Shown here in pieces: positions 19,854 to 64,000 of a stretch of 64,000 bases of DNA. Source of the stretch: Candidatus Woesearchaeota archaeon. GTDB lineage: Archaea; Nanobdellota; Nanobdellia; SCGC-AAA011-G17; GW2011-AR18. Under the pieces are notes generated by a model. That model did no database searches. It was given only the letters and a program-made list of their open reading frames with translations, and was not told where the DNA came from. How positions within the stretch are numbered: the first letter of the stretch is position 1; each line of letters opens with the position of its first letter. The DNA is taken from the NCBI GenBank assembly GCA_964344975.1, contig CAYFPK010000001.1:15485-79484 (forward strand). Reading direction: 5' to 3'. Position numbers and translations under genes: made by a program.

Positions 19854-19899
19854 TTCTAAAAAAACGAAAGGTATTTGCGAAAAAAAGTAACAAACACAT

Positions 19900-20130
19900 A
19901 TGAACAAAGAACATAAAGTTCTAATAATGAAAAAAGAGACAATAAAAACGCTTGCAAATGTTACAACGGCATTCACAACATGTATTGGCATAGGGTTAGC
20001 AAATGCATACTACATCAAAGAAATAAAAGAAATAAGTAACTACAGTATGACAATAATTGGAATAATTTATATATTAGCAATAATAGGTATTATTGCAATA
20101 ACAATAAGGGAAATACACGATGGACTTTAG
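19900..20130 (+). CDS. small hydrophobic protein
   Basis: 76 aa with two hydrophobic segments. Weak call. Confidence 0.25.
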   Translation: MNKEHKVLIMKKETIKTLANVTTAFTTCIGIGLANAYYIKEIKEISNYSMTIIGIIYILAIIGIIAITIREIHDGL

Positions 20131-20264
20131 AAAAATAAAAGCAGAAATTAAGAGATACTGGTTATATGTCGCAGTTGCGACTCTTGTTTTCCTTTTATTT
20201 TATCTAAGCTTACGGTAGAGAGATAAAAACCTTTAAAAACAAGCAAATACAAAAAACCACTAGA

Positions 20265-21209
20265 ATGAAAAGAGGCCTCATAATTCTCAGCATAGCAATG
20301 ATACTCCTTATAGCTGGCTGTCAAGGAAAAACAGAGACCACAACAGGCTTTGGCGCATTTTTAGGCGGCACAGACGGACTTATATTCAGCTTCGTGCAAG
20401 ACGAACCACCACTAACGGTACTCGACGATAACAACGAACCATTTTTCATTACCTTAGAGCTAGAAAACGCAGGAGAGTATCCTCTCCAAGAAAACGAAAT
20501 CCTCACAACATTATCCGGCATATCCTACGACGCGTTTGATATAGAAAAGGCGTCACTAACAAACGCAAACGCATTAGAAAAAGGGTACCTTAACAAACAA
20601 ACCGGCGAAATCGTGCAAGGTGGCGTTGATCAAATCACCTACGAGGCAGTCTACAAAGACGACTTAGAATACGACTTACCATTCACGATTGCAGCAAACG
20701 TGTGTTACCAATACCAGACCCAAGCAGTCGCACAAACCTGTTTATCAAAGCAACCGACACGACGCAGCCAACCGACTGACGTATGTATCATCACTGAAGA
20801 AAAGATTGTAGGCAACTCCGGCGGACCACTGCAAGTAACGTCATTTAGTGAGCGAACATCTGGCCAAAACGAAGTGACAATAACTTTCAAGGTAGAAAAT
20901 GTAAACCTGGGTGAAAGTTACCCACAAGATTATTTAGCACAAAAAGATGACTGTATCGCTGATGATAAGCTAAGAAACCAAGTGCACATCGCTGTAGCAA
21001 GCCCACAATCAATCCAAATTAACTGTCCAAAGTTAGGCGGCACAGCAGGCAACGTACGTTTAATCAACGGCCAAACAACTGTAACCTGTCGCATGGGCAC
21101 AGCAAACTTAGCTGAAGCAACACCATTCGCCGGCGCAATGGACATCAAGTTAGATTACGTCTACAAAGACTACATTACAACTGAACTTATCGTTGAAAAC
21201 GCTCTTTAG
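20265..21209 (+). CDS. putative lipoprotein
   Basis: [19 protein letters not shown]|QGK lipobox signal. tttaaaaa TATA-like element about 27 nt upstream. Confidence 0.5.
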
Positions 21210-22170
21210 AAAACTATTTTTAAGCACCTGTATACTCCTTCTGCTAAGTGGATGTACAATAAGTAACGAGACTATGGGAGAAAAAACAGCGATATTTGCA
21301 GGCGGCTGCTTTTGGTGCGTTGAAGCTGCCTTTGAAAAGGTAGACGGTGTTACAAAAGTCATTGCAGGCTACTCTGGAGGTACAGAGCAAAACCCTACAT
21401 ACAAAGATAACAAAGACCACAAAGAAGTAGTACAAATCCATTACGATCCAAAAAAAGTAAGCTACAAAGAGTTAGTTGACATATTCTGGAAACAAATTAA
21501 TCCAACAGACGACACAGGGCAATTTAGCGATAAAGGTCCACAATACACCACAGCGATTTATTACACAACACAAGAAGAAAAACACATAGCAGAACAATCA
21601 AAAGAGCAAGTCAGCAGCCGTTACGATAAACCTATGGTAACACCAATCCTTCCAGCAACAACCTTTTACAAAGCTGAAGAATACCATCAAGATTATTATA
21701 AAAAAAATCCAATACGATACAAAACATACAGATATTTCTCCGGCCGCGACCAATACTTAAAAAAAATCTGGGAGAAGCAAGAGCTCACAGAATTACAGTA
21801 TAAAGTCATAAAAGAGGACGGCACAGAACCAGCGTTTGACAACGAATACTGGGACAACAAAGAAGAAGGGATCTATGTGGACAGAATTTCTGGTACACCT
21901 TTATTCTCTTCTAAAGATAAATTTGACTCAGGCACCGGCTGGCCAAGCTTCACCAAACCAATTGATGAAGACAACATTATAGAGAAAAAAGATTACAAAC
22001 TCATCATCCCACGAACAGAGGTACGAAGCACCTCAGGCCACTTAGGCCACGTGTTTAACGACGGACCGACAGGGAAGAGATATTGTATAAACTCAGCAAG
22101 TCTAAGGTTTATTGCAAAGCAGGATCTAAAAGAACAAGGGTATGAAGAATACGAAAAAGAATTTAGCTAA
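21193..22170 (+). CDS. msrAB: bifunctional peptide methionine sulfoxide reductase MsrA-MsrB with lipoprotein signal
   Basis: Signal LLLLSGC, MsrA active site [11 protein letters not shown], and MsrB zinc/active-site region GTGWPSF...[19 protein letters not shown] with a CxxC-type pair. Confidence 0.8.
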
Positions 22171-42594: not shown

Positions 42595-42718
42595 CGCCGC
42601 GGGCAGGATTTGAACCTACATATCCGTGAGGAAACCGGCTCTCTCGAACTCCGTTGGGAGTAGAAAGCTAAGCTTTCGTATTCAAGGCCGGCGCAATACC
42701 AGATTATGCGACCGCGGC
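42595..42718 (-). tRNA. tRNA-Ser (anticodon UGA) with a ~40-nt intron at the canonical 37/38 position
   Basis: Manual fold of the minus strand: acceptor GCCGCGG/CCGCGGC, D-arm, anticodon stem CCGGC/GCCGG with loop CUUGAA[intron]A (anticodon UGA), 15-nt variable arm with UCC/GGA stem (type II tRNA), T-arm GUAGG-UUCAAAU-CCUGC, discriminator G. Intron about 42641..42680. Needs confirmation with tRNAscan-SE / BHB-motif search. Confidence 0.6.
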
Positions 42719-42772: not shown

Positions 42773-43150
42773 TTATTTTTTCCAGGCGTACTTGCCAGGA
42801 CCAAAGCTTGCCAAAGTTAAAGCCATCGCTACAATAAGCAAATCCCTCTCAAGACCAGCAACCACACCTTGTGGCAACTGTACAAAGACAATTGCAACAA
42901 CAATAATCGCAGCCAAGATAAGATTCGCCCACATATGCCAAAGACCAACTAAGATGGCTAAAGCACACAGCACTTCAACAACACCAACGATAGGACCTAA
43001 AAATGCAGGAAAGCCCATCGCAGCAAACTTGTCCATCGCCATGGAAGGGTTCAGCGCTTTAGGTACACCGTGCCATAAAAAAATAAAAACAAGCACAAGG
43101 CGGCTTAAAAGCAAACCGCCATCTTTGTACTTCGCAAGATCCACGTTCAT
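42773..43150 (-). CDS. DoxX-family membrane protein
   Basis: Four TM helices; LVFIFLWHGVPKAL is the DoxX pattern. ATGA overlap with the upstream DsbA-like gene. Confidence 0.55.
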   Translation of the reverse strand: MNVDLAKYKDGGLLLSRLVLVFIFLWHGVPKALNPSMAMDKFAAMGFPAFLGPIVGVVEVLCALAILVGLWHMWANLILAAIIVVAIVFVQLPQGVVAGLERDLLIVAMALTLASFGPGKYAWKK

Positions 43151-43875
43151 AGCTCCGCCTCGATGATTTGTTGGAACACAGCAAACGGTTGCGCACCACT
43201 AACCAGCTTTCCATTTACTAAGAAACCCGGCGTACCTTGTACACCACCAGCCTGACCAGCTTGCATGTCAGCTAAGATCCGAGGTTCATGTTTACCTGAT
43301 TCTACACAGGAATCAAAGTCAGCTCTGTTCAAACCAAGTTCGTCAGCCCAAATGCCAAAGGAAAACGCATTCATACCAGACTGCTGCTCAAAAATTTTGT
43401 CATGATACTCCCAAAACTTCCCCTGCTCACCTGCACACTCAGCGGCAACCGCCGCAGGCATTGCTAATTGGTGAAAACTTAGTGGAAAGTGGTGGAATTC
43501 TAAACGAACTTTCCCCGTATCTATATACTGCGTCTTAATTTGTTGATACGCATCACTGTAAAACCGTCCACAGAACGGACACTCAAAATCCGACCATTCC
43601 TGGATTAATACAGGCGCATCCTCTGAACCAATTGCGTGCGCGTCACCATCAGCAACAACACTAGGCCCAGAAGGTCTATTCTCTGCGTGCAAAAATGCAA
43701 AGCCCTGCGTTGCAATAGATGCAACAAGCAACACTAAAAGCACGACAGTTGCCGCTTGCCACTTCTTTTCGGCAAGCTCTTGAAAAAACGTATTTTCTGC
43801 CATATAATATATCAACTCCCTATATATTTTTGATAGAAGCACAAAGGAAGTACCCATTAAATAAGGTTGTGGCAA
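43147..43875 (-). CDS. DsbA-like thioredoxin-fold thiol:disulfide oxidoreductase, membrane-anchored
   Basis: N-terminal TM (ATVVLLVLLVASIATQGFAF) and CxxC active site in the DsbA context (WSDFECPFCGRFY). Confidence 0.65.
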   Translation of the reverse strand: MPQPYLMGTSFVLLSKIYRELIYYMAENTFFQELAEKKWQAATVVLLVLLVASIATQGFAFLHAENRPSGPSVVADGDAHAIGSEDAPVLIQEWSDFECPFCGRFYSDAYQQIKTQYIDTGKVRLEFHHFPLSFHQLAMPAAVAAECAGEQGKFWEYHDKIFEQQSGMNAFSFGIWADELGLNRADFDSCVESGKHEPRILADMQAGQAGGVQGTPGFLVNGKLVSGAQPFAVFQQIIEAEL

Positions 43876-43945
43876 AAACCATCAAAAAAAAAGAGGAGAA
43901 AAGAAGAAAAAAAGAAGAAAAAAAGCTTCTTAACGTTCACAAAGC

Positions 43946-44494
43946 CTAAATTTCCTTTTTCAAAAATAAGGCATACGACTTTCCTTTAGGCGTGCGAGCA
44001 ATAAGACCTTTCTTTTCAAAAGAACTAACAATTTGACTGACCTTCGCCTTTGAAAGATCACAACGCACACCAACCATATGTTGTGTAATCCCCTCTGCAG
44101 CAACTATAGTTGAAAGCACCTTACGCTCCGAAGGGTCTAACACTAAAGACAAGGTATCTAAACGTATTTTACGAACATCCATTCGTTGAGCAGCATCCAA
44201 ACGAGAAAGAATATCATCAGAACCCCGGTGAAAAAGAAGAAGATAAAAAGAGAAGCTTAAAAGAGCAACCACAAGCCCCACAGCAATGTGAGAAAGATTC
44301 AAACTTTGACTAATTTGGATACAATCTGCAGAAATACTACACCCTAAAGACATACTTTGCGATTGCAACTGTGCAACAACAAAATAAAGAAAAAGAGCAA
44401 AGAAGAGGCTAAAACCAAGTAAAATGAGACCTAACTTTTTACGTTCCACAAATAAAACAGTAAAAGGCAGCTTTAAATAAATTGCGAAAAGCAA
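43946..44494 (-). CDS. membrane-anchored winged-helix regulator (start uncertain)
   Basis: Two N-terminal TM segments, then a C-terminal wHTH (LDPSERKVLSTIVAAEGITQHMVGVRCDLSKAKVSQIVSSFEKKGLI). Only 6 bp separate this start from the divergent topA start, so one of the two starts may be wrong. Confidence 0.4.
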   Translation of the reverse strand: MLFAIYLKLPFTVLFVERKKLGLILLGFSLFFALFLYFVVAQLQSQSMSLGCSISADCIQISQSLNLSHIAVGLVVALLSFSFYLLLFHRGSDDILSRLDAAQRMDVRKIRLDTLSLVLDPSERKVLSTIVAAEGITQHMVGVRCDLSKAKVSQIVSSFEKKGLIARTPKGKSYALFLKKEI

Positions 44495-51549: not shown

Positions 51550-52557
51550 ATGGGCATCAACTTAGCAAGTATCATTCCAAAAGAAGAAATCAAGTTTGAA
51601 GATCTTAAAGGCAAAAAGGTAGCAGTAGACTTCTCCAATATGGCCTATCAATTCCTAGCAAGCATTAGGCAACCAGACGGCACTCCTTTACAAAACAGCC
51701 AAGGAAAAACAACATCACATTTGCAAGGAATATTGTCACGAGTGAGCAATTTAACAGAAAAAGAAATTAAACTTGCTTTTGTCTTTGACGGCAAACCGCC
51801 ATTACTTAAAGTAAAAGAACTTGAAGCACGTGCACACAGAAAAGTGCTCGCAAAACAAAAGTATGACACAGCAATGCAAGAAGATAATGTAGACGACGCA
51901 TACAAGTACAGTAAGCAAACCATCAGATTAACAAAAGAGATGAAAGAAGAATCGCAAGAACTCCTAGAAGCTATGGGGTTTCCCTGTATACAAGCCCCCC
52001 AAGAAGCTGAAGCACAAACAGCATACATGACCAAAAAAAATGATGTCTTCGCAGCAGCATCTTCTGATTACGACAGTTTACTGTTTGGCTGTCCAAGAAG
52101 TATTCGAAACTTAACACTGGCACAAAAAAGAAGACTACGGGGTGGAAAATATGTATACACGTTTTTAGAACTCATGAAACTTGAAAAAATAAAAAAAGAA
52201 CTAGTCATTAACCAAGAACAACTAATAGCAATTGGGATATTAACAGGGACAGATTTTAACAGAGGCGGCATAAAAGGGATTGGCCCAAAAAAAGCAATAA
52301 AGTTAGTTAAAGAGAAAAAAACGATAAAAAACATCTTCAAAGATCTTGAGTGCGACTTTGATCCAGAAGAAATTTACAACATTTTCACCAAAATGCCCAT
52401 TGAAGAAAAATACAAACTAGTATGGAAACAACCAAACGAAAAAAGGTTGTTAAATTTATTGGTAGACAAAAATGAGTTTAACCAAGCAAGAGTCGAAGGG
52501 TACATAAAAAGACTCAGCAAAAGAGAAAAAACCCAAAAAGGGTTAAGCGACTTTTAA
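51550..52557 (+). CDS. fen1: flap endonuclease FEN-1
   Basis: MGINLASIIPKEEIKFEDLKGKKVAVDFSNMAYQFL is the XPG-N start, followed by XPG-I (GTDFN...GIGPKKA) and an H3TH motif. Confidence 0.85.
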   Translation: MGINLASIIPKEEIKFEDLKGKKVAVDFSNMAYQFLASIRQPDGTPLQNSQGKTTSHLQGILSRVSNLTEKEIKLAFVFDGKPPLLKVKELEARAHRKVLAKQKYDTAMQEDNVDDAYKYSKQTIRLTKEMKEESQELLEAMGFPCIQAPQEAEAQTAYMTKKNDVFAAASSDYDSLLFGCPRSIRNLTLAQKRRLRGGKYVYTFLELMKLEKIKKELVINQEQLIAIGILTGTDFNRGGIKGIGPKKAIKLVKEKKTIKNIFKDLECDFDPEEIYNIFTKMPIEEKYKLVWKQPNEKRLLNLLVDKNEFNQARVEGYIKRLSKREKTQKGLSDF

Positions 52558-55502
52558 AGCGTTTCAACTTCTTCTGTATCAACATCTTCTAACTCAGAAA
52601 AACTACGTTCACCTTCACCAACTTCAACAGTGTCTTCTTCTAAAGAAAGTTCAGGTAAACGCTCATCAGTTACATCCAACCAATCATCTGGTTTTTGCAA
52701 CTGCATGGCATATCGATCAAGAAATTCATGGCGCAGATAATAAAGACTAGTAGCATCTTTATCTGTACTACCAGTAAAGTTTTGAATAGTTTTTAGAGCA
52801 AGCCCATATTTAGCCATTGAAAAAACATGTACAAACGAATCCATAAGCGTCTTAAAACGTGGAGTCAACAAAGAATCAAGGTCAAGACCATACATGACAG
52901 AAAGATCAACAAATGAGGAAAGATGCTCAAAAGCCTCAACAACGGCACTTTCTACTGAAGAGATTTGTAAAAGAACAGTATCCACTGCACGATGTTGTTC
53001 ATCAGTAAGTGCAACACCATCTGTATAGCGCTTAAGCAGACGTCGCAACTTCAAAAACAAAACCTTTTCCTCATCCAAAAGATGTGCAGCATCTAAGATA
53101 GGCGCTGGAGATGTAGAAAGGCGCACATCAAACGGCAAAGAAAGAGCAAGTTCTGCACCAGAAGAATCAAAACCTCTCGCAATAAACGAAAGGACAAGTT
53201 CATCTGAAGGTTTGTAATGCAATTCTAAACCTTCACCAACTTTTTCAACAAAATGCTCCGAATCTGTAGTCCACCATTCCACACGAGCAACATTTTTCGG
53301 AACACCAGTAACATACAAATAGATTTCATCTAAAAGCGAAGCATAAGGTTTACCAGCAACAACCAATTCGGGCAAAGTCACAGCAATAGGACTAACAGAA
53401 AAAAGTAATCGAGTAAAAACTTTTTCACCTAATGAATCTTGCCCCCGGACAAGAAGCTCTTTACGACCAGGCACATGCGGCGTATACAAAAAATCAGCAC
53501 CAACAGTCAGATTTTGAGGAAAAGAAAAGTCACTTGTACGAGAAGCAACATCATAAATATCAACAGAAACAAGGTTTTCCACAAGAGGTCGAGAAGAGCT
53601 AACAGAAAAAACAACAGATTCATCAACAGCTAAACTTGCAGGAAAATTATGTACAACCAAATCAGCAACAGGCGCAGCGCCAACAGTAACCGCCCCCACA
53701 GCAGAACCTAGAAAAGCACCAGACACATGGTACGCCTCAGCACGTAACGTGACCTGTTGACCAGTTAAAGAATCAGCAAATTGATAGACAGCAACAAGAT
53801 CTCCTGCAACAGCAGCATCCTCTGGCAAAGCAGCAACTTCTCCTGAAGCATCAACATACGACCATGTAACAAACGCAGGTGCAGGCCCAGATTTCACTAA
53901 AAGGTGTACAGACAACTCCTCTCCTGCAGCAACAGCATCCTCAGAAACAAGATGATAGATAGGAAGTTCATCAACGGCAGTTAGAATTTGACGCGCAATC
54001 ATAAAATACTGTCCAGCATAACGAACATAGACATACAACGTGTACCTTCCTTCATCATGCAAGCGAAAAGAAACAGGAGAAGAAACTTGCACAGGGCCAA
54101 CAGCATCAGCCACAGCAAACTTTGAAGCAACAAGTTCATCAAAAGTAGACGAGCTCACTGCATAGTAAACATCATACAACGCCGTCGTGTCCACTGCATA
54201 AGAGACATCTGTGTTACAAGCAACAACAGCAGGCCCTTCTATGGTAACAGCAATATCTGCAGGGTGACGTAAAACTGTAATAGGAAACGAAAGTTCATCA
54301 ACAATACCATCCAAGGTATGCAATCGTGCAACTAAACGGTTTGCAGCTAAAGCTTCACCACCCAAAACAAGATCTACAACTATGCCGGCAACATCTTGCG
54401 CAACAACATCATCTAAATCAATAAAGTGTCCAGAAATTTCATATCCCCACAAAACATGCTGTACAGCAAAAGGATCGCCAAAAAAATCTACTGACCAACG
54501 TGAAGGTGAACCAACAAACAAAATGTTAGACCCATCATCCGGCGTTACAGAGAGTAAGAAAGGTACAAAAACAAGCGGCAATTCAATAGCAGAGTCATAA
54601 AGTGGGTGTGTTGCATCAACACAGGGAACTAAACGCACAGAGGTATAATCAACAAGTGCAGAGCGAGAAAAAGTAACAGCACCGTCTCCAACAGGGTAAG
54701 TCATTGCAGAACTCGTAAAGGATCCATCACTAGACAAAAAATCTACGCGAATAAAAGCAACATCAGAATCCGCAAAGGACTGATAAGCTAAAGTAACTTC
54801 TTCACGGTCAACACGCAACTCCTGCTCATCAACAAACAGATGAAACCGCCGCTCATAAGAAAAATCGCGAGAAACTGAAGCTAAAACCACATCACCACGA
54901 GAAAGAACTTCAACAACAATTTGTCCAGAACTTCCAACAACAGCAGTAGGTTTCCAAACTAAAACAACGTCACGCTGTGGGCGATCTAAAGGCAAAAGTT
55001 GCATAAGGGTACGTTTATTAGCAACGACCTGATACAAAGCAACAGAGGCAACATCTTTAAGCGAACCTGCTAAATGAATAGGGATAGAGATTTGATCACG
55101 ACTCATAATCTGGTAGGTTTCATCTGTAGCTGCAAAGGAAGCATCAATAGTAACAACTAAAGGCGCAGAAACAGTAGGCGCAGAAACAGGCTGCGGTTCC
55201 TCACGAGGAAAGTGTAAAGCAATGGGAGTAATTTTAACTAAAGATGCATCAGATTTTTTTTTAGCAATTAAAAAAAGAGTTGCATCATCATACTGGTTAT
55301 AAAAGTCAGTAACATCACAAGCTAAAGCAGGAAGCACATCAGAACCAAATCGATGCGGCTCAAGTTTATCTTCAGTAATAGCAATAGCTTTGTCCAAGTC
55401 AGCATCAACATCAAAACGATCAAGGTCCCCGGGCAAAACCAAATAAAAAAAATCAAGGTCAGAATGTAAACGTATAGAACGGTAATATATTTTAGGATTC
55501 AT
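52554..55502 (-). CDS. giant uncharacterized protein D (982 aa), last gene of a four-gene coupled operon
   Basis: No recognisable domain, signal peptide or TM. Predicted beta-rich, repetitive V/A/S/D-rich segments. Acidic C-terminal tail (...EDTVEVGEGERSFSELEDVDTEEVETL). ATG overlaps the stop of gene C (ATGA at 55499-55502). Confidence 0.55.
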   Translation of the reverse strand: MNPKIYYRSIRLHSDLDFFYLVLPGDLDRFDVDADLDKAIAITEDKLEPHRFGSDVLPALACDVTDFYNQYDDATLFLIAKKKSDASLVKITPIALHFPREEPQPVSAPTVSAPLVVTIDASFAATDETYQIMSRDQISIPIHLAGSLKDVASVALYQVVANKRTLMQLLPLDRPQRDVVLVWKPTAVVGSSGQIVVEVLSRGDVVLASVSRDFSYERRFHLFVDEQELRVDREEVTLAYQSFADSDVAFIRVDFLSSDGSFTSSAMTYPVGDGAVTFSRSALVDYTSVRLVPCVDATHPLYDSAIELPLVFVPFLLSVTPDDGSNILFVGSPSRWSVDFFGDPFAVQHVLWGYEISGHFIDLDDVVAQDVAGIVVDLVLGGEALAANRLVARLHTLDGIVDELSFPITVLRHPADIAVTIEGPAVVACNTDVSYAVDTTALYDVYYAVSSSTFDELVASKFAVADAVGPVQVSSPVSFRLHDEGRYTLYVYVRYAGQYFMIARQILTAVDELPIYHLVSEDAVAAGEELSVHLLVKSGPAPAFVTWSYVDASGEVAALPEDAAVAGDLVAVYQFADSLTGQQVTLRAEAYHVSGAFLGSAVGAVTVGAAPVADLVVHNFPASLAVDESVVFSVSSSRPLVENLVSVDIYDVASRTSDFSFPQNLTVGADFLYTPHVPGRKELLVRGQDSLGEKVFTRLLFSVSPIAVTLPELVVAGKPYASLLDEIYLYVTGVPKNVARVEWWTTDSEHFVEKVGEGLELHYKPSDELVLSFIARGFDSSGAELALSLPFDVRLSTSPAPILDAAHLLDEEKVLFLKLRRLLKRYTDGVALTDEQHRAVDTVLLQISSVESAVVEAFEHLSSFVDLSVMYGLDLDSLLTPRFKTLMDSFVHVFSMAKYGLALKTIQNFTGSTDKDATSLYYLRHEFLDRYAMQLQKPDDWLDVTDERLPELSLEEDTVEVGEGERSFSELEDVDTEEVETL

Positions 55503-56878
55503 CTAAACCAATCATCCTCCGAATCACCAGAAAAGTTTACATCTTCTTTGCCCGCAAAAATATCGGCATACGGATCCGCAGAGACTGCAGGTTCAGGTGA
55601 AAGTTCAGCAGGAGCAGTTGCAACTTCAGGCTCAGCTGCAAGCTCACTTTCACCAACTTTTACCTTAGGCTCATCAGTAATAGTAAACGTGTAACTGCGA
55701 TGTGCAAGATCTTTTCGTTCCCCAGAAGAAGAGATTCGTGAAAGGTAAACATCCAAAGTGACCTCTGAAAACTCAGCAAAGAGATCGAAATGATCAAAAA
55801 GCGAAGGGTTCTCATTATCAAAAAGAGACAAAACATCGCCTGTTGCAGAACTTTTCCAACTAAATTGTAAGTCTGGAGCAAGTACTGCCCGCTCAACATC
55901 CGTAAGACCTTGTATGGAGAAATAAAGCCAAGCATCAGCAAGATCAGATCGGGCAACAGTATATTGCATATGTTTACGCAAACCTTTACGAACCATACGA
56001 CCATCAACATGACGCATAGAGCTTAAAGAAAAGTCCAGCTTTAGTTTCGGCGCTGCAAACCTAAGCGAATATTGTTCAAAGAAAAGTTCATCAGAATGAT
56101 CAACATACTCTTTTTTATCTTTAGGTAAAACAACAAGATAAAGCTTGGGTGAATCAATAGAACTAAAATGCACATCAAGACCTGTCTTAGCAAAAGAGCG
56201 CTGCAGATCAGAAGAAGAGACATAGTAAAGAACATCATCACGTGAACGTGTACAAGCAACATAAGAGGATGAATGGCTAGTAGAGCTTTGAATACGAACA
56301 AAAACAGAGTAATCTTTAGGTTTAGCTTTAACAAACTTAAAGGCAATGCGAAAATCTTCAGGGTTTGTAACAGTAAAAGATACAGCTTTACGCCAGTTAG
56401 GCTCAGCAGAAACATTCTTAGAATATTTTTTAATAAAATTCAAGCCAAACCCATCAGGCAAGGTTGGTTTTTCTTGAGCAGGAGACTTTAAAGAAGAAAG
56501 TTCTTCATCATCAAGAATTTTTTCTCGAGCAGGTGCATGAGTAGACTCATCTATAAGTTCCTCAGGTTTTTCAGGACGCGTAGCAGCAACATAAAAATAA
56601 TCATAAAAAGCCCGACCACTCTCTTTATCTTGCAGTAACACACACACTGTCGCCATAGGGTAGTCCTTAAATGCTAGAGCAGAACAAGTAGAGGCATCAA
56701 AGTCAAAAATATAAACAGTTTTCCGAATTCTATAAGCAAAAAAAGAGGGATACTTTTTTTCTGCAAAAATTTTAGGAATTCTTGAAGCAACAAGAAATCC
56801 AGGGTAAATACAATAAGAGACAGAATCAGGAGCAACAACATCCTTAGGAATAGCCAAACGGATATATCGCCAGCTCAT
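55499..56878 (-). CDS. uncharacterized protein C (459 aa) of the coupled operon
   Basis: No motif. Acidic and aromatic C-terminus (...NFSGDSEDDWFR). ATGA overlaps at both ends (56875-56878 and 55499-55502). Confidence 0.55.
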   Translation of the reverse strand: MSWRYIRLAIPKDVVAPDSVSYCIYPGFLVASRIPKIFAEKKYPSFFAYRIRKTVYIFDFDASTCSALAFKDYPMATVCVLLQDKESGRAFYDYFYVAATRPEKPEELIDESTHAPAREKILDDEELSSLKSPAQEKPTLPDGFGLNFIKKYSKNVSAEPNWRKAVSFTVTNPEDFRIAFKFVKAKPKDYSVFVRIQSSTSHSSSYVACTRSRDDVLYYVSSSDLQRSFAKTGLDVHFSSIDSPKLYLVVLPKDKKEYVDHSDELFFEQYSLRFAAPKLKLDFSLSSMRHVDGRMVRKGLRKHMQYTVARSDLADAWLYFSIQGLTDVERAVLAPDLQFSWKSSATGDVLSLFDNENPSLFDHFDLFAEFSEVTLDVYLSRISSSGERKDLAHRSYTFTITDEPKVKVGESELAAEPEVATAPAELSPEPAVSADPYADIFAGKEDVNFSGDSEDDWFR

Positions 56879-58686
56879 TTTTTCTCGTCCTCCAACAAAT
56901 ATGCAATATCAGCTGACTCAGGCTCATCTAAAAATACAAAACGGTTTTCATCAACACCTAAAACCGCAAAATCTTCAGCACGACCAACAGGCGGAGAATC
57001 AATAGATTCGCGATCAGCTTCAGACTCATCAACAACTGGCGGTTCAACTTCCTCTTCAGGAATTAAAGAAGAAAAGTCAGGACTCTTGGAAAAATCAAAT
57101 CTAAAAAAAGCAGAGTTCTCATCACAAGAATAACGAATCGACTTAGGCATCGCTCCCGACTTCGTTGCAATAGGACCTAAAGCAATAGGGGTTTGAAAAC
57201 GGTCAGGCCTTCTTTCAGGGCCAGAGGTACCTTTAGCAAAGGGCAAACGCCAAAAAGAGATTGTTTTTCCCTCAAAAGCAGGATAAAAACTAAGACGAGT
57301 AGAACGGTATGAAGAAAAAAGATCAGTAACAAACCGAGAGGTAAAAAGAAACCTTCCATCTTCAGAAAAAGGTTCTCCTGAGTAGGAATTTCCAGCATAA
57401 AGATTGCAGGAAAAACCAACAGGAAAATCAGAAAGATTCGCAATAGTTGCAACAACGGGTTGTGAAGAGTACGGTTTATTTAATAGGACATAGTAATAAT
57501 AAATTTTTGGATCAGGACCACTAAGAAGTCTATCCAATAAAGAATCTCTCGGAGCAAGTGTTTTCACAACTGGATAGTTCAGCAAGATTTTCATCACAGG
57601 CATCTTCGGCATAGGGTCAGTTAACACCAAATAGTTCCAACCAACAATATCACCATGAGTTTTCTCACGGCCACTCACCACAACACAAAGTAACGTAAAC
57701 GTTTTAGGGTAAGGTTTTTTAAGCCGTTCACGATAATTACAATCCCACTCCAAAGAAGTTCCAAGACCCACAGGTTTACGTTTACCACGATACACTTTTG
57801 CAACATCCTTAAGCGTCAACGCCTTTTTGCCACGCACAACATACCACAAGACTGTCGCTTTCAAAGGTACATCACGCGCAGCAACCTCTAAAGTTGTATC
57901 GGTTAAAGGCAACAGCCCCTTGTGCAAATCAGAACCCACAAACGCAGCAGTATCAACAGGAGACATAATATGCACACGGGAAACTCCACGGGAAACTTCT
58001 TCTCCAGGTACTTCTTCAGTTGGAGGTTCAGGCGTAGAAAGAGGAAGTAACGGGTCAAATCTAAACAAGAACTCAGAGGTAGTCAAAAGATGTTTATCAG
58101 AGTAACGAAGAAGTGAAGCATCTAAGCGAACAACATCTGCACCATCTCCAAGTTCATCACAGATAAAATGGCTCAGCACAAGTAAAAAAGAACCATCTTC
58201 TTGAGCAACCAAAGTATGTGCAGCAAGAACAGCGCTGGTAAAAAGAAATGCACGGCCATCTTCAGTAACAAGAGAAACCTCCAATTCATAGTCTTGAAGC
58301 CGTTCCCCAGAAAGTTTAAAGGCAATCTTGGCATCATCCACACGAGTTCCATCAAAAAGCAGTACATCTTTGCGAAAACCAAAGGCACCTTCCTTGGCAA
58401 AACGCAGGTGAGCACAAAAGTTAGGATCAATATCAACTCCAAGAGATTCAGCAATCTCCTCTTCATCCACAATTTCAACAGGCACTTCTACAGGCACGTG
58501 AAACGAAAACAACACAGGCGCAGTAACAGCAATTTGTTCACCACCCACATCATAAAGTTCAGCAGAAATCTCATACTCTCCAGAAGATACCATCTTACTT
58601 AAAGCAACAAACTCAGAGGTAAAATCATAGGTAAAGTCATCACCCGCAGCAGGTTCCAAGATAAATCCTTTCTTAAACTTCTTCAT
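56875..58686 (-). CDS. uncharacterized protein B (~603 aa) of the coupled operon; longest ORF extends to 58746
   Basis: ATG at 58686 (MKKFKKGFILEPAAGDD...) overlaps the TGA of gene A (ATGA at 58683-58686). No motif. Acidic C-terminus. Confidence 0.55.
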   Translation of the reverse strand: MKKFKKGFILEPAAGDDFTYDFTSEFVALSKMVSSGEYEISAELYDVGGEQIAVTAPVLFSFHVPVEVPVEIVDEEEIAESLGVDIDPNFCAHLRFAKEGAFGFRKDVLLFDGTRVDDAKIAFKLSGERLQDYELEVSLVTEDGRAFLFTSAVLAAHTLVAQEDGSFLLVLSHFICDELGDGADVVRLDASLLRYSDKHLLTTSEFLFRFDPLLPLSTPEPPTEEVPGEEVSRGVSRVHIMSPVDTAAFVGSDLHKGLLPLTDTTLEVAARDVPLKATVLWYVVRGKKALTLKDVAKVYRGKRKPVGLGTSLEWDCNYRERLKKPYPKTFTLLCVVVSGREKTHGDIVGWNYLVLTDPMPKMPVMKILLNYPVVKTLAPRDSLLDRLLSGPDPKIYYYYVLLNKPYSSQPVVATIANLSDFPVGFSCNLYAGNSYSGEPFSEDGRFLFTSRFVTDLFSSYRSTRLSFYPAFEGKTISFWRLPFAKGTSGPERRPDRFQTPIALGPIATKSGAMPKSIRYSCDENSAFFRFDFSKSPDFSSLIPEEEVEPPVVDESEADRESIDSPPVGRAEDFAVLGVDENRFVFLDEPESADIAYLLEDEKK

Positions 58687-60908
58687 GGACGTTTTCCCCC
58701 AAAAGGCCACCAACCCTTTTTTTTCTTGGCAGGTCGCACATGCCACACAATGCGATCAACACGGTCAGCCACTTCACCAGGCTCTAAGCGAGCAACAACG
58801 GGACCTCCAGCAGTTACTTCAGCAGGCATATCCAAATGAACAACAGGCAAAGGTGTAGCTTCATCAGAGGTTTCTGCAAGTATAGACAAAAAATAATCCT
58901 CTGAAGACAAAATGGAGCGATCGTACTCAACATCCGCATCAGGCGCAAAGACTTTGAAAAAGAAAAGATAAGGTTTCCCAAAAGCAGGCGGATATTCAGA
59001 AGAAAAATGGCGGCGAAGTTGAGAAAGATCAAAAAGATAGGATCCATCATCCTCCATAAACATACCGGGAAAAAGAGTGGTACCATCCTGAGATCTAAAG
59101 AGAAGTGAAAGTTGATAAGGTATAAAATCCTTTTTTTGCAACTGTAGTCCAAGATGTAGTGGTACAGATGAATGAAAATCAGCAAAAGAGATTCTAAATT
59201 CATAAGGGGTACGCCAAGAAGGTGTAGAAATACCCGAGGATTTATTTTTCAAAAAGCGAAATTTAAAATCCTTTGGTAGAGTAGGAGGTCCATCCGCTTC
59301 AGGCTCTTCAGGACTAACTCCTTCACCTACAACTTCAACAAAAATAAGGTCATAATTAACACGCTCACCAGCATCATCATAACCTGCAACAGCAACCGTG
59401 TAAAGGTTCGAATCAAGCGGAGGAGTAGAAAAAGTAGTTAAGACTCCTCTTGCAGAGGGTCTAACAGAAATATGATCAAAAGAAACATATCCTGGTACAA
59501 TACTCCAACCAGAAGAAACAACTGAAGAACCAAATAGTGCACTAAAAGTCAACTCAGTATTTGCCGGAACTTGCACAAAGTTTTTATCTTTTCTAACTTT
59601 TATTTTAAACTCTTTCCAATCAGATCGCGCAGCAACAATCCTCACAGAAGTAGCTCGAGCAGCTTCACCCAGTTCAGCATCTTCATCTTTGCCTCGCCGC
59701 CACTTTCGCTTTAAACGTTCCCACCAATTAAGACCTTCATCCTCAGGCTTAACCTCTTCAGGTTCAGGAAGAATAGGAGCAACAGTATCATTAACAATTT
59801 GAACACCATGCACACCTGATGACGCTTTTGCGCCAGTCTCAGTATCGGTACAGGTTACTTCTAAACCAAGGTTCATGCGTTGCCCAGGCCGCAACCCATA
59901 ACGTGCAAGATCTAAGGTAATCGAATCTAAGTTCGGACCAGCAAAACGTTGTGGATAATTTTTCACACGCCACTTAAACTGATAAATACGGCCAGGTTCT
60001 CCACCTTGCACATGAGCAATGAGACGCAACGTAGGACTAGCTGAAATTCGTACAGGGTCAATGGCAGGCTCATGATGAAGTATAACAGTAAATGAAGCAC
60101 GTGGCGTTGATCTAAAAAGCCCACCGAATTTTTTAAACGGCCAAAGAGCAAGACCACCAAGTCCTTTTGCAGCACCCCAGCCAAGACCACCAACACCTTT
60201 AGCAGCGCCCCAACCTTTATCGCCAGTCCACTTAGCAGCTCCCCAACCTTTATCGCCAGTCCACTTAGCAGCACCAACACCTTTATCTTTTCCAGAAGAA
60301 GAAAGGCGACCAAGACCGTGCCAAAAACCTTCCTTAGCACCATCTTCACCAGCACCATACGCAGCAACACGATCTTTAGTACCACGTAAGATATGAATTA
60401 ATAATAGCAACCCTAAGAGTAAAGCTACAGGAAGCAAAAATTCTGCAGGGATAGGTATCCAATAAAACAACTGCGGGTACCACAGATAGCCAACAAGTAA
60501 AGCAGCAAGTAAAATGCCAATAAGGTACATCCCCGACCCATGCGTTTTATCTTTAACCAAGTGATACAAAAACCCAACAGCAATGATACCTAAGAAAACT
60601 AACACAAACGGACCAATGCTAAAAAGTGAAAACCCTTGATAAATTTCCCAGGTAACAAGTGCAAGTGAACATACTAGCCCAAGTGCAAAAGCAAGGTTCT
60701 TTGAAGTTTTACCATCACCACCCACTAACGGTTTGAGGGCAACATCAAAAAGTAAAGACAAAACAAGAAAGGCAACAAAAAAATCGAGCCAACCGTAATA
60801 ATCATAATACAAATCTAGAGGAGTAAAAACAACAGCAGAAACTAAAGGTAAACAAAGTAGCAACAGAGCAAAAACTAGCAAAAACCTACCTCTTTTTAGC
60901 ACAAACAT
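58683..60908 (-). CDS. polytopic membrane protein A (~741 aa; longest ORF extends to 61121) with W/G-rich tandem repeats, first gene of the coupled operon
   Basis: From ATG 60908: MFVLKRGRFLLVFALLLLCLPLVSAVVF..., about 8 TM helices in the first ~230 aa. Then GKDKGVGAAKWTGDKGWGAAKWTGDKGWGAAKGVGGLGWGAAKGLGG (exact 33-bp tandem duplication at 60208..60273). Then a ~450 aa hydrophilic beta-rich domain. Basic C-terminus. Start at 60908 is preferred because 61121 would overlap the divergent Trm5-like gene by 158 nt. Confidence 0.5.
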   Translation of the reverse strand: MFVLKRGRFLLVFALLLLCLPLVSAVVFTPLDLYYDYYGWLDFFVAFLVLSLLFDVALKPLVGGDGKTSKNLAFALGLVCSLALVTWEIYQGFSLFSIGPFVLVFLGIIAVGFLYHLVKDKTHGSGMYLIGILLAALLVGYLWYPQLFYWIPIPAEFLLPVALLLGLLLLIHILRGTKDRVAAYGAGEDGAKEGFWHGLGRLSSSGKDKGVGAAKWTGDKGWGAAKWTGDKGWGAAKGVGGLGWGAAKGLGGLALWPFKKFGGLFRSTPRASFTVILHHEPAIDPVRISASPTLRLIAHVQGGEPGRIYQFKWRVKNYPQRFAGPNLDSITLDLARYGLRPGQRMNLGLEVTCTDTETGAKASSGVHGVQIVNDTVAPILPEPEEVKPEDEGLNWWERLKRKWRRGKDEDAELGEAARATSVRIVAARSDWKEFKIKVRKDKNFVQVPANTELTFSALFGSSVVSSGWSIVPGYVSFDHISVRPSARGVLTTFSTPPLDSNLYTVAVAGYDDAGERVNYDLIFVEVVGEGVSPEEPEADGPPTLPKDFKFRFLKNKSSGISTPSWRTPYEFRISFADFHSSVPLHLGLQLQKKDFIPYQLSLLFRSQDGTTLFPGMFMEDDGSYLFDLSQLRRHFSSEYPPAFGKPYLFFFKVFAPDADVEYDRSILSSEDYFLSILAETSDEATPLPVVHLDMPAEVTAGGPVVARLEPGEVADRVDRIVWHVRPAKKKKGWWPFGGKRP
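60150..60290. repeat. 33-bp tandem repeats inside membrane protein A (encodes the KGWGAAKWTGD units)
   Basis: Unit ccccaacctttatcgccagtccacttagcagc(t) occurs as two exact adjacent copies (60208..60273), flanked by degenerate copies. Confidence 0.7.
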
Positions 60909-60934
60909 GTCTAAATGCAAAATCGGCGAAATGG

Positions 60935-60943
60935 TTATATAAA
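60935..60943. promoter_or_regulatory. palindromic TATA box (ttatataaa) between divergent membrane protein A and the Trm5-like gene
   Basis: 20 nt upstream of ATG 60964 (plus) and 26 nt upstream of ATG 60908 (minus). Confidence 0.45.
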
Positions 60944-60963
60944 GCTTGTGATAACATAAACAG

Positions 60964-61944
60964 ATGAAAGCAGCTAAAATCCCACTAAGCAAGGCACAAG
61001 AAGAAAAAAAACGCCTTTTTGACAAAGGGGTAATAAACAAAGAATATAAAGCAAAAAGAGACAAAAAATTTTTGTACATTCCTCTCATAAAAGAAATAAA
61101 AGGCATTAAAATGGTCAACAAAGTGTTTGAAAAAAAACAACGTATAACAGCAAAAACAATATTAAAAAAAGTGTTAACAAAAGAACAATTAAAACTCCTC
61201 CCATCTGCCTACGATGTGATAGGTAGCATCTTAATTTTCGAACTTAAAAGTGAGTTAACAAAAAAGGAAAAGGTTATTGCACAAGCATATTTGCAAGCAA
61301 ACAAAAATGTAGAGACCGTAGCAAAAAAGCAAGGCATCCACCACGGCGTGTACAGAACACAAAACATCAAAATTTTAGCAGGAAAAAACACGAAGGTAAC
61401 CACACATAAAGAGAACGGGATTCAAATTGAACTCAACGTAGAAAAGGTCTATTTTTCACCGAGAACAGCAACAGAAAGGCTAAGAATAGCAAAATTGACA
61501 AAAAAAGGTGAAGAAATTTTAGTACCATTTGCTGGCTGTGCCCCATTTCCATTAGTGATGAAAAAGCAAAACCCGACCGTAAAAATAACAGCAATTGAAC
61601 TCAATCCAACAGCATGTAGATACGCTAAAAAAAATTGTAAAAAAACAGACATAGAAGTCATCTGCGGTGATGTGAAAAAAGCAATCCCAAAAAAGACTTA
61701 CGACCGAATCATCATGCCCTTACCTAAATCCGCTGAAGAGTTCTTGCCCACGATAAAAAAACATGTCAAAAAAGGCACAAATATCCACGTGTACGCATTT
61801 AATCTAGAGCAAACCGCACAAGACATCAAAAAGCGCCTAGAAAAGGAGCATACATGGCTTAAAGTGCAAAAAACCGTCAAATGCGGCGACTATGGCCCAA
61901 ACATCCACAGGTACTGTTTTGACTGTAAAGCGAAAGGTATTTAA
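60964..61944 (+). CDS. Trm5/Taw2(TYW2)-family tRNA methyltransferase
   Basis: SAM-binding motifs (ILVPFAGCAPFPL, ...DRIIMPLP...) typical of the Trm5/Tyw2 class I methyltransferase family. N-terminal D1-like domain. Confidence 0.6.
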   Translation: MKAAKIPLSKAQEEKKRLFDKGVINKEYKAKRDKKFLYIPLIKEIKGIKMVNKVFEKKQRITAKTILKKVLTKEQLKLLPSAYDVIGSILIFELKSELTKKEKVIAQAYLQANKNVETVAKKQGIHHGVYRTQNIKILAGKNTKVTTHKENGIQIELNVEKVYFSPRTATERLRIAKLTKKGEEILVPFAGCAPFPLVMKKQNPTVKITAIELNPTACRYAKKNCKKTDIEVICGDVKKAIPKKTYDRIIMPLPKSAEEFLPTIKKHVKKGTNIHVYAFNLEQTAQDIKKRLEKEHTWLKVQKTVKCGDYGPNIHRYCFDCKAKGI

Positions 61945-61971
61945 AGAAACTACTACTAACAAAGAGTAACA

Positions 61972-62358
61972 ATGCCTTTAACAGATATCACTCAAGGACT
62001 TTTAGGAACCGCAATGATTGCTAGCGCAATTACAGCAGCAGTATTCGCATATCAAGGCTGTAATAGAAGTGAAGCCGAAGAGCTAGGCATCACAGTATGT
62101 CCAAACGGCATTTATTTAGCAAACGGTCACTGGGATCCACAATCCGACTATTTTGAAGTACGAGACGTAGGTATCGACATCAATGGTAACCCGGTTGAGC
62201 AAGGAACATACCAATTTCCAAAAGACAACGTCTTAGTTGGTCTTGACCTTGAACGTTGTGAATTTCGAAGTGCTGAAGATATGTACGAAGGACACTTAAC
62301 ACCGTTCGTTTTACAAGCACAACCAGACGGTTCATTGCAAAAAATAACAAGACCTTAA
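61972..62358 (+). CDS. small N-terminally anchored protein with a Cys pair
   Basis: 128 aa. Hydrophobic N-terminus (LLGTAMIASAITAAVFAY), then a hydrophilic domain with 3 Cys. Confidence 0.35.
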   Translation: MPLTDITQGLLGTAMIASAITAAVFAYQGCNRSEAEELGITVCPNGIYLANGHWDPQSDYFEVRDVGIDINGNPVEQGTYQFPKDNVLVGLDLERCEFRSAEDMYEGHLTPFVLQAQPDGSLQKITRP

Positions 62359-62448
62359 AAACTAAAACAACTTCTAATCATCGAGGGATGATTTAGTGAA
62401 CACCCGCGGATCCTTTCAGGAGATGACGGACGGTAGTAGCTGATGACC

Positions 62449-64000
62449 TCACAATCCTAATTTTTCAAAGGCAGAACCTTTTGCTTTAACAGCAACAGGA
62501 GCATCAGCACCATGCCACGTTTTTCGAGGATGAATTTGCAGTGGATACATTTTCTCAGCAGTATCATCTAAGACCAAAGCAGCCCCTTTCATACGCGGCA
62601 ACATATCAAAATATTTCTGAATCTGCCCTGGCAAATATGAATGCATCATCGCATTCAAAGCAGCAATGTCACGTTTAGAAGTTAAACGGTGTGACAACAC
62701 TATGTCAGTTTGCGTAATAACATCGGTATGAATCTCACCGGGCTGTTGAGTCGCTAAAACTAAACTCACACCAGGCTGACGCCCTTCACGAAGCACCTGT
62801 ACTAACGCATCCGTTGCAGGCGTCACCGCATCTTTAGGTAAAAACTCATGGGCTTCATCGACAAGCAACCAGACCAAAGGCATCTGCGAACCTACAGCCC
62901 CCATTTGTGAAGAAAAATACGAATGACCACGTTGCACATCATCAAGTTCTTCAACTTTACGATGCGCCATACGCTGTTGCATTAACTTACGAGTTAAAAG
63001 CCCAACGACCAAACTTTTTATGTTCCAATCAGCATAACAACTCACATCAAGAATACTCACCTTACCGCCAGCAACAATCTCAACTAAAGGCGTAGCATCA
63101 ACAGAAAAAATTCCCCAAGACGCAGCTGCAGAAAATCTGTTTTCACAGGCTAAACGCAGCGAAGCAGTTAATCGCGTGTCAGCACGAACAGCGGCAAGTA
63201 AATCACTTAAATCATACACATCTTTTCGAGAAGAAACGCTTCGTACAACACGATCAAGCGCAATACCCAAATCAGAGAACAGCGTTACACCAAACACCCC
63301 ACACCAGTCGGAGCTAGATAGTTCACTTGGTAAAATCGTAAAAGGCGCATCAACAGGAATCCCTGCCTCTTTTTGTGAAGTAAACGCACCTGCAGGGGTA
63401 TACAACGTCACATCAAGACCCTGCGCACGTAACCCCCACTCATCAAGCAAATCTTCTTGTTTGACGTTAGGATACTTCATGGTCCAAAACACCCCCATGG
63501 TATCAAAAATTAACACGGCAATTTTTTCTTTAATCTCAGCATCTAGAGAAGAGATTTCTTCAGCTATTGCAGCTAAGGTGTAAGAATTATGAACAATAAT
63601 ATCATTTGCAACAAAGTTATGAGTCTCAGGAACACAAAAATCATAAACCTCAAATTCACCGTCAAGATATTCTAAAGAGACAATCTCATCCCAAAAAATG
63701 TCTGATTGAGCAAGCTGTGCGATCGCAGGTTGGTTATCAGCAAGAGCAATTTGTAGCAACGTTTGCCTATGTGGTGCATAGCGAATTCTTTCACGCATGG
63801 CCTTGGGGTGCGCATAACCCATAGCACGTCCAACTGCAGCCCAATTAGCAGGCCTATACAAATCCCAAATACCTTTCGGAATAGTGTCAATATTTGAATT
63901 AGAAGCAATTTTAGCTAAATCAGCCAGACAACGTTGAGCTTTCTGCTTTTTGGCACCATAAAACCCGATTTCTTCAATAAACTTCTCACGACTTTCGGAC
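62449..64000 (-). CDS. HerA/FtsK-superfamily (DUF87-like) P-loop ATPase interrupted by an intein; 5' end lies beyond the window edge
   Basis: The reading frame is open from 64000 with no stop. Residues ...DIFWDEIVSLEYLDGEFEVYDFCVPETHNFVANDIIVHN|S are the canonical intein C-terminal splicing block (HNFxANxIxVHN followed by +1 Ser), placing the intein/C-extein junction near 63586. The C-extein carries Walker B and downstream motifs (LVWLLVDEAHEFLP, ...LVLATQQPGEI...). Upstream in-window sequence (KFIEEIGFYGAKKQ...) is consistent with a homing-endonuclease region. Confidence 0.6.
   Translation of the reverse strand, partial: SESREKFIEEIGFYGAKKQKAQRCLADLAKIASNSNIDTIPKGIWDLYRPANWAAVGRAMGYAHPKAMRERIRYAPHRQTLLQIALADNQPAIAQLAQSDIFWDEIVSLEYLDGEFEVYDFCVPETHNFVANDIIVHNSYTLAAIAEEISSLDAEIKEKIAVLIFDTMGVFWTMKYPNVKQEDLLDEWGLRAQGLDVTLYTPAGAFTSQKEAGIPVDAPFTILPSELSSSDWCGVFGVTLFSDLGIALDRVVRSVSSRKDVYDLSDLLAAVRADTRLTASLRLACENRFSAAASWGIFSVDATPLVEIVAGGKVSILDVSCYADWNIKSLVVGLLTRKLMQQRMAHRKVEELDDVQRGHSYFSSQMGAVGSQMPLVWLLVDEAHEFLPKDAVTPATDALVQVLREGRQPGVSLVLATQQPGEIHTDVITQTDIVLSHRLTSKRDIAALNAMMHSYLPGQIQKYFDMLPRMKGAALVLDDTAEKMYPLQIHPRKTWHGADAPVAVKAKGSAFEKLGL

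Follow-up and report, generated by a model that had tools for sequence, protein, structure and literature searches.

A MauE-related DoxX gene in a putative DsbA partner slot of a Woesearchaeota archaeon

We analysed a 64-kb stretch of DNA from a Candidatus Woesearchaeota archaeon (contig CAYFPK010000001.1), hereafter called the window. Three co-directional open reading frames (ORFs) on its minus strand, confirmed in the ORF list of the window over positions 42773-44494, encode a two-transmembrane winged helix-turn-helix (wHTH) regulator, a membrane-anchored thiol:disulfide oxidoreductase of the DsbA family and a four-transmembrane DoxX protein. The doxX gene occupies exactly the position that a non-homologous gene for a cysteine-bearing membrane protein, which we call X163, holds in otherwise identical surroundings in the closest relatives, and the DoxX protein is a homologue of MauE in whose subfamily no cysteine is conserved. 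We tentatively propose that DoxX links the re-oxidation of DsbA to an acceptor in the membrane, with a quinone as the likeliest candidate, either directly or with the help of a cysteine-bearing oxidase encoded outside the window. The initial annotation of this DNA had described the three genes, with the regulator upstream, the CPFC motif and transmembrane (TM) anchor of DsbA, the ATGA overlap and the four TM segments of DoxX; on all these points the ORFs, the Pfam matches and the AlphaFold2 (AF2) model agree with it.

Exchange of the gene after dsbA

The regulator gene (43946..44449, minus strand, 167 amino acids from a GTG start assigned by homology) is separated by a spacer (43804..43945, delimited by direct reading of the minus strand) from dsbA (43147..43803, minus strand, 218 amino acids), which is followed by doxX (42773..43150, minus strand, 125 amino acids). 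A divergent topoisomerase gene lies upstream of the locus; a tRNA gene and then BatA/VWA genes lie downstream of doxX. The closest homologue of the DsbA protein (57% identity) was found in L051-L053, three samples in which the order is topoisomerase (divergent), wHTH, DsbA, X163, tRNA-Ser and BatA/VWA. The gene order of the window is identical except that DoxX stands in place of X163. When it was compared with L051 and L052, homology resumed at the tRNA promoter region, and the sole difference was the ORF between the dsbA stop codon and the tRNA promoter. The downstream boundary of the swapped slot is thus the tRNA gene itself (42595..42718, minus strand), a class II, Ser-like tRNA with the anticodon UGA, as read by alignment, and an intron of about 42 nt; it was matched by the Rfam tRNA model with 44 bits and missed by ARAGORN. 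The orthologous tRNA genes in L051 and L052 are intron-less, and their upstream region can also be aligned.

X163 in L051 is a polytopic protein of 163 amino acids encoded co-directionally with dsbA, and it matched no Pfam or NCBIfam model. In its family (members at L051:4427-4918, L055:5001-5849, L056:5001-5507, L062:3845-4357 and L141:4735-5220) a C-P-x-C motif inside a hydrophobic segment is invariant and a C-terminal cysteine nearly so, and a profile search returned 1,534 clusters at 50% identity. Its structure prediction, with a predicted local distance difference test (pLDDT) score of 59, was left out of the fold search. Three proteins (P0241, P0278 and P0279) are fusions of X163, a TM segment and DsbA, and another (P0167) joins X163 to a cupredoxin. 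We considered whether DoxX could be a diverged X163 and rejected this, since the two are not homologous (hhalign probability 0.7%); the swap is therefore a non-orthologous one and not a divergence.

Among 80 sampled metagenomic DsbA loci, the gene adjacent to DsbA was X163-like in 11, VKOR in 4, MauE in 1 and DsbD_2 in 1 (L125); 65 had no adjacent partner, 34 of these with room on both sides. X163 also follows DsbA in the independent contexts of L055, L056 and L141, and in L084 a MauE gene lies between two DsbA genes. We defined a triad as a gene for a two-TM wHTH protein with a C-x5-C loop that lies directly before dsbA in the same orientation, with a gene for a small polytopic membrane protein after dsbA. 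This triad occurs in the window and in L051, L062, L124 and L141; the third gene is X163-like in the latter four and DoxX in the window only. Because X163, VKOR or MauE fill the position after dsbA elsewhere, and because X163 is moreover found fused to DsbA, this position is, judging from gene arrangement, a genuine DsbA partner slot. On the same comparison, X163 appears as the ancestral occupant of the slot in this lineage and DoxX as its non-orthologous replacement. X163 itself is a candidate for a further family of DsbA partners, either DsbB-like or metal-handling.

The junction between dsbA and doxX, GAGCTATGAACG, is an ATGA stop/start overlap of 4 nt (GCT ATG A), and a Shine-Dalgarno (SD)-like motif, GAGGCGGAG, is found 5-13 nt upstream of the doxX ATG. 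Overlap and motif together predict that doxX is translationally coupled to dsbA. The spacer on the other side of dsbA contains an extended T/C-rich stretch behind the stop codon of the regulator gene and, some 20-30 nt ahead of the dsbA ATG, a TATA-like element, AAAATATATA. From this stretch and this element, read as a putative terminator and a putative promoter, we infer that dsbA and doxX probably form a transcription unit of their own. A scan for sigma-70 promoters and terminators was set aside, as it uses a bacterial model that has no bearing on an archaeal genome. In its third-position composition (T 0.42, A 0.16) doxX resembles dsbA far more than a non-native gene, which indicates that the swap is not recent. 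A recent horizontal insertion of doxX was accordingly rejected as unlikely, given this composition and the lack of a flanking integrase or repeats.

DoxX, DsbA and the regulator

The DoxX protein matched the Pfam families DoxX (PF07681; E-value 7.6e-12, 46.1 bits, cut-off 23.6) and DoxX_2 (1.3e-8, 35.3 bits, cut-off 26.3). Its score against the Pfam MauE model was 23.0 bits, under the gathering cut-off of 27, and its best NCBIfam match was a weak one to HvfX (24 bits against a cut-off of 80). It has four hydrophobic segments, which the AF2 model (pLDDT 95) folds into four TM helices. An alignment of 32 homologues delineates a tight DoxX subfamily, in which H27, K31, F42, G46, P48, G52, G56, E59, A86, V90 and E101-R102-D103 are invariant. 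The only cysteine of the window protein is C62 (codon 42965-42967), located in TM2 one helical turn from the invariant E59; the residue is Ala, Gly or Ser in all 31 homologues.

The kinship of DoxX with MauE became apparent in a direct comparison with the MauE of the related locus L084, where hhalign gave a probability of 95% (E-value 3e-8) over the full length; the two families belong to the same Pfam clan. K31, at the end of TM1, and E59, in TM2, align with a Lys and a Glu of this MauE. It has been reported that MauE replaces DsbB in E. coli, that a CXC motif in its periplasmic TM3-TM4 loop is essential, as judged by mutagenesis, and that its conserved TM1 Lys and TM2 Glu flank a predicted quinone site (bioRxiv 10.64898/2026.03.05.709764). 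From the text of that preprint, K31 and E59 of DoxX would be the equivalents of this Lys and this Glu.

The DsbA protein was recognised by two Pfam models, Thioredoxin_4 (1e-33, 117 bits, cut-off 23.2, profile positions 4-165 of 165) and DSBA (1e-17, 65 bits, cut-off 25.6). The family is very large, with 6,116 matches at E <= 1e-3, and most named homologues of both DsbA and DoxX belong to Woesearchaeota or to other DPANN archaea. The active site C75-P76-F77-C78 (CPFC), the second cysteine pair C123/C166 and the cis-Pro loop G190-T191-P192, whose absence would have refuted the reading of the initial annotation, are all invariant across an alignment of 38 homologues. The dsbA ORF is open over 43147-43875, with an alternative TTG start at 43875. 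Translation most likely begins at the ATG at 43803, giving 218 amino acids, because three public assemblies call this length and the closest homologues share a conserved 'MAE' N-terminus. A single N-terminal TM segment behind a charged N-terminus is conserved in the homologues and recurs as the linker TM of the X163-DsbA fusions; in the orientation that this suggests, DsbA is predicted to be extracytoplasmic. The nearest solved structures are those of two Gram-positive oxidases, MdbA (4pwp, 4e-24) and BdbD (3eu3, 4.5e-16), a kinship from which we predict that the window DsbA is an oxidase as well.

The regulator ORF is open over 43946-44494, and homology places the start at the GTG at 44449. 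Its C-terminal wHTH matched the Pfam families DUF7343 (1.3e-7) and MarR_2 (1.7e-7), and also HTH_24. The protein consists of a short basic N-terminus, TM1, a loop with a G-C-x5-C motif, TM2 and the wHTH, in a topology that would put the loop outside the cytoplasm and the wHTH inside. Orthologues located directly upstream of dsbA in L051, L062, L124 and L141 keep both the start and the motif, so that G-C-x5-C is found in five lineages at 35-66% identity (the window, L051:3072-3575, L062:2445-2948, L124:1541-2053 and L141:2859-3353). In L055 and L056 a two-TM wHTH gene is found in divergent orientation, and its product has no cysteine pair. The regulator may be a one-component sensor of the thiol-disulfide status of the envelope that controls the locus.

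Weighing the explanations

According to the reading that we prefer, the locus would be the local version of a triad conserved in Woesearchaeota-like DPANN archaea. A membrane-tethered DsbA oxidase would make disulfides in secreted proteins and lipoproteins, and the third gene product, a small polytopic membrane protein, would take the electrons from DsbA. In the relatives this third component would be a cysteine-bearing protein (X163 with its CPxC, VKOR or MauE); here a gene-for-gene replacement would have put a cysteine-less, MauE-related DoxX in its stead. The presumed quinone would be held in a pocket lined by K31 at the end of TM1, E59 in TM2 and E-R-D at the outer end of TM4. It could be presented directly to the CPFC of DsbA; in the alternative route, DoxX would work together with the cysteine-bearing oxidase encoded outside the window. 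A redox link between the two proteins is made plausible by the exact replacement at the slot, the ATGA coupling, the MauE homology, the native-like composition and the presence of cysteine-rich potential clients nearby. The strongest version of this reading, in which the cysteine-less DoxX is a full DsbB-type replacement and the CPFC reacts directly with a quinone or another acceptor at an outer-face K31/E59/E-R-D pocket, seems to us quite doubtful.

Some neighbours of the DoxX subfamily elsewhere also point to redox chemistry. In six cyanobacterial genomes (among L017, L035-L040 and L045) the subfamily gene lies downstream of genes for an RskA anti-sigma factor and NDH-2, in some cases with a sigma-70-type extracytoplasmic function (ECF) sigma factor, and in two Bacteroidota genomes (L012 and L013) it lies upstream of genes for a secreted WCGSC thioredoxin and an ECF sigma factor. 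We counted NDH-2 and the secreted thioredoxin in favour of a plausible redox link for DoxX, together with the overlap of a related Woesearchaeal doxX with a VKOR gene in L049.

Within the window no cysteine-bearing partner of DsbA came to light. The Pfam scans took in about 45 of its ORFs, all located beyond the initial 15 kb, and left aside part of the short ones. VKOR had no Pfam match, and a hidden Markov model (HMM) built from the VKOR proteins of three related loci found none in the window either; DsbB was looked for through the Pfam scan only and gave no match. The initial annotation had likewise seen neither DsbB nor VKOR here. More generally, HMM or phmmer searches of the 64 kb brought up no ORF for VKOR, MauE, X163 or a cupredoxin. 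Among the five strongest other ORFs with at least three TM segments, Pfam recognised SpoIIM only; the remaining TM-rich ORFs, mostly antisense shadow ORFs, were outside the scan.

Several observations weigh against a function of DoxX as a DsbA partner. No cysteine is conserved in the 32-member alignment of the subfamily, and the 17-residue TM3-TM4 loop (ADCGCFGAFKFGDTPTQ) that carries the CXC motif in MauE is missing from DoxX. Because the homology is full-length, K31 and E59 are kept and the CXC loop is missing, DoxX is best described, from these alignments, as a MauE relative that keeps a putative quinone pocket without the thiol relay. The pairing with DsbA is confined to one lineage. From the DoxX side, where the sample comprised 42 species-representative loci and three metagenomic contigs, none of the 45 loci has a DsbA-like ORF within 5 kb of the subfamily gene (only copies of the window's own contig have one); from the DsbA side, the subfamily is found at none of the 80 loci. 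The three closest DoxX homologues (73, 67 and 61% identity) lie in unrelated contexts: the closest adjoins a multicopper oxidase gene, and the 67%-identical one, in L005, has a Fe/Mn superoxide dismutase (SOD) gene 2.5 kb away. In lasso-peptide gene clusters, moreover, the pair made of a DoxX protein and a thiol:disulfide oxidoreductase (TDOR) proved dispensable for disulfide formation when deleted (PMC9266682).

The DoxX-like genes of other Dsb neighbourhoods tell against it as well. In L049:5001-5791 (Woesearchaeota isolate RIFOXYD1_FULL_32_9) a VKOR gene and the gene of a related DoxX share an overlap of 4 nt and form a translationally coupled pair, with a further DoxX gene in convergent orientation. 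L062 has the wHTH-DsbA-X163 triad with a DoxD-like gene on one flank and, on the other, a convergent operon encoding a cupredoxin, a DoxX-like, a VKOR-like and a thioredoxin-like protein. L054 and L140 both have MauE, DsbA, DsbA, cupredoxin and DoxX in this order. At these four loci, therefore, DoxX-like genes accompany VKOR, X163 or MauE and do not replace them. A DoxX-clan gene was present in 3 of the 11 X163-positive loci and in none of the 68 further loci without MauE. In all, five DoxX-clan ORFs lie near DsbA in 403 kb, at 4 of the 80 loci, a count that comes without a background frequency and from which no enrichment is claimed. The DoxX proteins of these neighbourhoods belong to subfamilies other than that of the window protein. 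Their location beside cysteine-bearing partners speaks for an accessory role in electron transfer no less than for a DsbB-like one.

The disulfide-forming module of DsbA and DoxX that the initial annotation had proposed is thus partly upheld. An extracytoplasmic disulfide locus, a putative partner slot and the homology with MauE speak for it, whereas the pairing is not conserved and DoxX has neither a conserved cysteine nor the CXC loop. The linkage of the two genes that it had looked to find conserved in relatives was absent from both samples (0/45 and 0/80). As to the conserved cysteines or quinone-binding residues that it had envisaged in DoxX, the former are absent from all 32 homologues, while K31 and E59 are invariant and align with the predicted quinone residues of MauE.

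How else could the arrangement be understood? The two genes may simply be adjacent, with no electrons exchanged between their products. X163 would then have been lost and an autonomous DoxX settled in the slot, co-transcribed with dsbA without re-oxidising DsbA; DoxX would act alone, in the handling of quinones or of electrophile and oxidative stress, and DsbA would be re-oxidised in another way or by small-molecule oxidants. The subfamily is indeed almost always found alone in variable contexts, and it is scattered patchily over Woesearchaeota, Gemmatimonadota, Cyanobacteria, Bacteroidota and Halobacteria, as would be expected of a mobile function that is sufficient in itself. The absence of a conserved cysteine and the 65 of 80 DsbA loci that do without an adjacent partner fit this explanation too. 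What makes us consider it rather unlikely is the precision of the replacement, at a slot otherwise holding proven or fused DsbA partners, together with a 4-nt overlap and an internal SD motif that exceed loose co-location and a doxX composition near that of dsbA. Another role without electron transfer is that of a non-catalytic scaffold or assembly factor, with DoxX holding DsbA, or the clients of DsbA, at the membrane in the way that the M. tuberculosis DoxX serves SseA and SodA and that NACHO/TMEM35A serves receptor subunits; we know of no redox role for the latter protein. This we regard as improbable, since DsbA already has a TM anchor of its own and the invariant H27, K31, E59 and E-R-D, in or at the edge of the bilayer, resemble a ligand-binding or catalytic site; moreover, no rhodanese or SOD gene adjoins doxX.

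The recurrence of cupredoxins near Dsb genes raises the question of copper. A DsbA-cupredoxin fusion is encoded at L059:2-1345, HMA-DsbD_2-cupredoxin fusions adjoin DsbA at L066:1662-3407 and L135:5207-6685, and conserved cupredoxin-DoxX pairs lie downstream of DsbA genes at L054:6036-6846, L140:6047-6866 and L062:5226-6133. These genes hint that the electron acceptor may be a copper protein or that copper is handled there. Together with DoxX, a DsbA-like protein of the sort known from the Scs copper-tolerance systems could then form a module that protects envelope thiols from copper or matures cuproproteins. The X163-cupredoxin fusion, the multicopper oxidase beside the closest DoxX homologue and the weak match to HvfX, a protein from an operon for a copper-binding ribosomally synthesised and post-translationally modified peptide (RiPP), would agree with such a module. 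It nevertheless appears distinctly improbable for the window, where the searches found no cupredoxin homologue and, among the roughly 45 ORFs scanned with Pfam, no HMA or copper-oxidase domain; besides, the cupredoxin-paired DoxX proteins form another subfamily and the HvfX match is far under its cut-off. Least probable of all, in our view very much so, is a reductive pathway in which electrons from quinol would travel by way of DoxX to the DsbA-like protein, for the reduction of the extracytoplasmic MsrAB or for an isomerase function. The gene for a lipoprotein MsrAB, which needs a reductant from elsewhere, does lie 21 kb away, and DsbD_2 neighbours DsbA at one locus (L125), yet the DsbA has its nearest solved structures in the oxidases MdbA and BdbD, and the slot holds the oxidases VKOR or MauE elsewhere. 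For a quinol to reduce a thioredoxin-fold CXXC is, in addition, thermodynamically uphill. We therefore retain, as the tentative reading stated at the outset, a DoxX that links DsbA re-oxidation to a membrane acceptor.

The wider window and known systems

The MsrAB gene (21193-22170, plus strand) encodes an MsrA-MsrB fusion with the lipobox LLSGC, and the ORFs 18942-19853 and 20265-21209 encode lipoproteins with six further cysteines each, which bears out the lipoprotein MsrAB and the cysteine-containing secreted proteins of the initial annotation. They are part of a run of exported proteins over 16383-22170 on the plus strand; those upstream of MsrAB have no Pfam match, and the two cysteine-rich lipoproteins are among them. 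The exported proteins of this region are likely clients of an envelope thiol-redox system. An extracellular MsrAB implies a reductant pathway somewhere in the genome.

The window is part of an archaeal chromosome, as it encodes eRF1, eIF2-alpha, GINS, Cdc48, FEN1, RadB, SRP54/FtsY and Trm5. Its plus strand is strongly asymmetric in composition (A 25220, T 13770, C 13475, G 11535), with no change of skew sign across the 64 kb. At third codon positions, plus-strand genes have 48% A and 19% T, and minus-strand genes 52% T and 19% A; the asymmetry thus follows the DNA strand and not the direction of transcription. It also shifts amino-acid usage (Lys 11.3% vs 4.9%; Val 5.6% vs 10.2%). The syntenic relative (L051 and L052) has an AT skew of -0.33 in the same orientation, and other Woesearchaeal loci have a weaker one. 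On the minus strand, in the region 52554-63861, four consecutive large ORFs of 982, 459, 623 and 812 amino acids, all without a Pfam match and the last with about seven TM segments, are followed by a gene for a Zot/HerA-like ATPase with an intein splicing domain. This region may encode a surface or secretion apparatus.

The way in which DsbA is re-oxidised is unexplained in many organisms without DsbB and VKOR, and even after the description of MauE in 2026 about 20% of bacterial species remain unaccounted for (bioRxiv 10.64898/2026.03.05.709764). The locus described here amounts to a natural experiment, in which a cysteine-bearing partner has been replaced by a cysteine-less, MauE-like DoxX within an otherwise identical synteny. 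Should the two prove equivalent in function, then DoxX proteins, a widespread and largely unassigned group that includes RclC, HvfX and MhqP, could join the oxidation of thiols to quinones with no cysteine relay in between. If they are not, the locus still shows that a DsbA can lose its dedicated partner. Cooperation between DsbA and DoxX would in any case involve a chemistry unlike that of every known DsbA partner. Should the CPFC react directly with the acceptor, this would constitute a new mechanistic class of DsbA re-oxidant, with no redox-active cysteine in the membrane protein, and the large DoxX family would gain a defined biochemical activity.

A literature search yielded no account of a DsbA-DoxX arrangement of this kind, of Dsb systems in DPANN archaea or Woesearchaeota, or of X163, which is not in itself proof of novelty. 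Among known systems, the DsbA-DsbB and DsbA-VKOR pairs (E. coli DsbA-DsbB, actinobacterial MdbA-VKOR and B. subtilis BdbD-BdbC) resemble the window in having a tethered DsbA with CPxC and cis-Pro next to a small four-helix membrane protein. The DoxX of the window differs from the membrane proteins of these pairs, for it has neither the two redox-active cysteine pairs in periplasmic loops that mark DsbB nor the CXXC at TM4 and the loop cysteine that mark VKOR. It is equally distinct from DoxD/DoxA, the thiosulfate:quinone oxidoreductase (TQO), since Pfam gave no DoxD match at E <= 0.01 and its gene has dsbA and a tRNA gene as neighbours and no DoxA partner. In M. tuberculosis, DoxX reportedly forms a membrane-associated oxidoreductase complex with SseA, a rhodanese-type sulfurtransferase, and SodA, a superoxide dismutase. 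DoxX is tied to extracytoplasmic or thiol redox homeostasis in that complex, but its partners there are SseA and SodA and not, as in the window, a DsbA. The DoxX fold is also that of the eukaryotic NACHO/TMEM35A (PDB 9h9e), an endoplasmic reticulum chaperone for ion-channel assembly, with 14-16% identity to the window protein.

Closer in gene arrangement are the pairs SviE/SviF, MslE/MslF and AboE/AboF, in which a DoxX protein and a DsbA-like CXXC protein are encoded together in class I lasso-peptide clusters and have been proposed to make disulfides (PMC6409603, PMC9266682). The adjacency of DoxX and a CXXC oxidoreductase is common to these pairs and to the window, and the likeness lies at this level; unlike the window, they belong to bacterial biosynthetic clusters. 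X163 of L051 shares with DoxX the exact position, the small polytopic character and the orientation with dsbA, the CPxC and the C-terminal cysteine being X163's alone. With MauE, DoxX has in common its ancestry and the Lys/Glu pair; the CXC loop is MauE's alone, and the window protein stays under the Pfam MauE threshold. A DsbA accompanied by DsbB, VKOR or MauE is thus the known kind of system to which this locus is nearest, and what appears to be new is the presence, in the putative partner slot, of a DoxX that is homologous to MauE and devoid of its cysteines.

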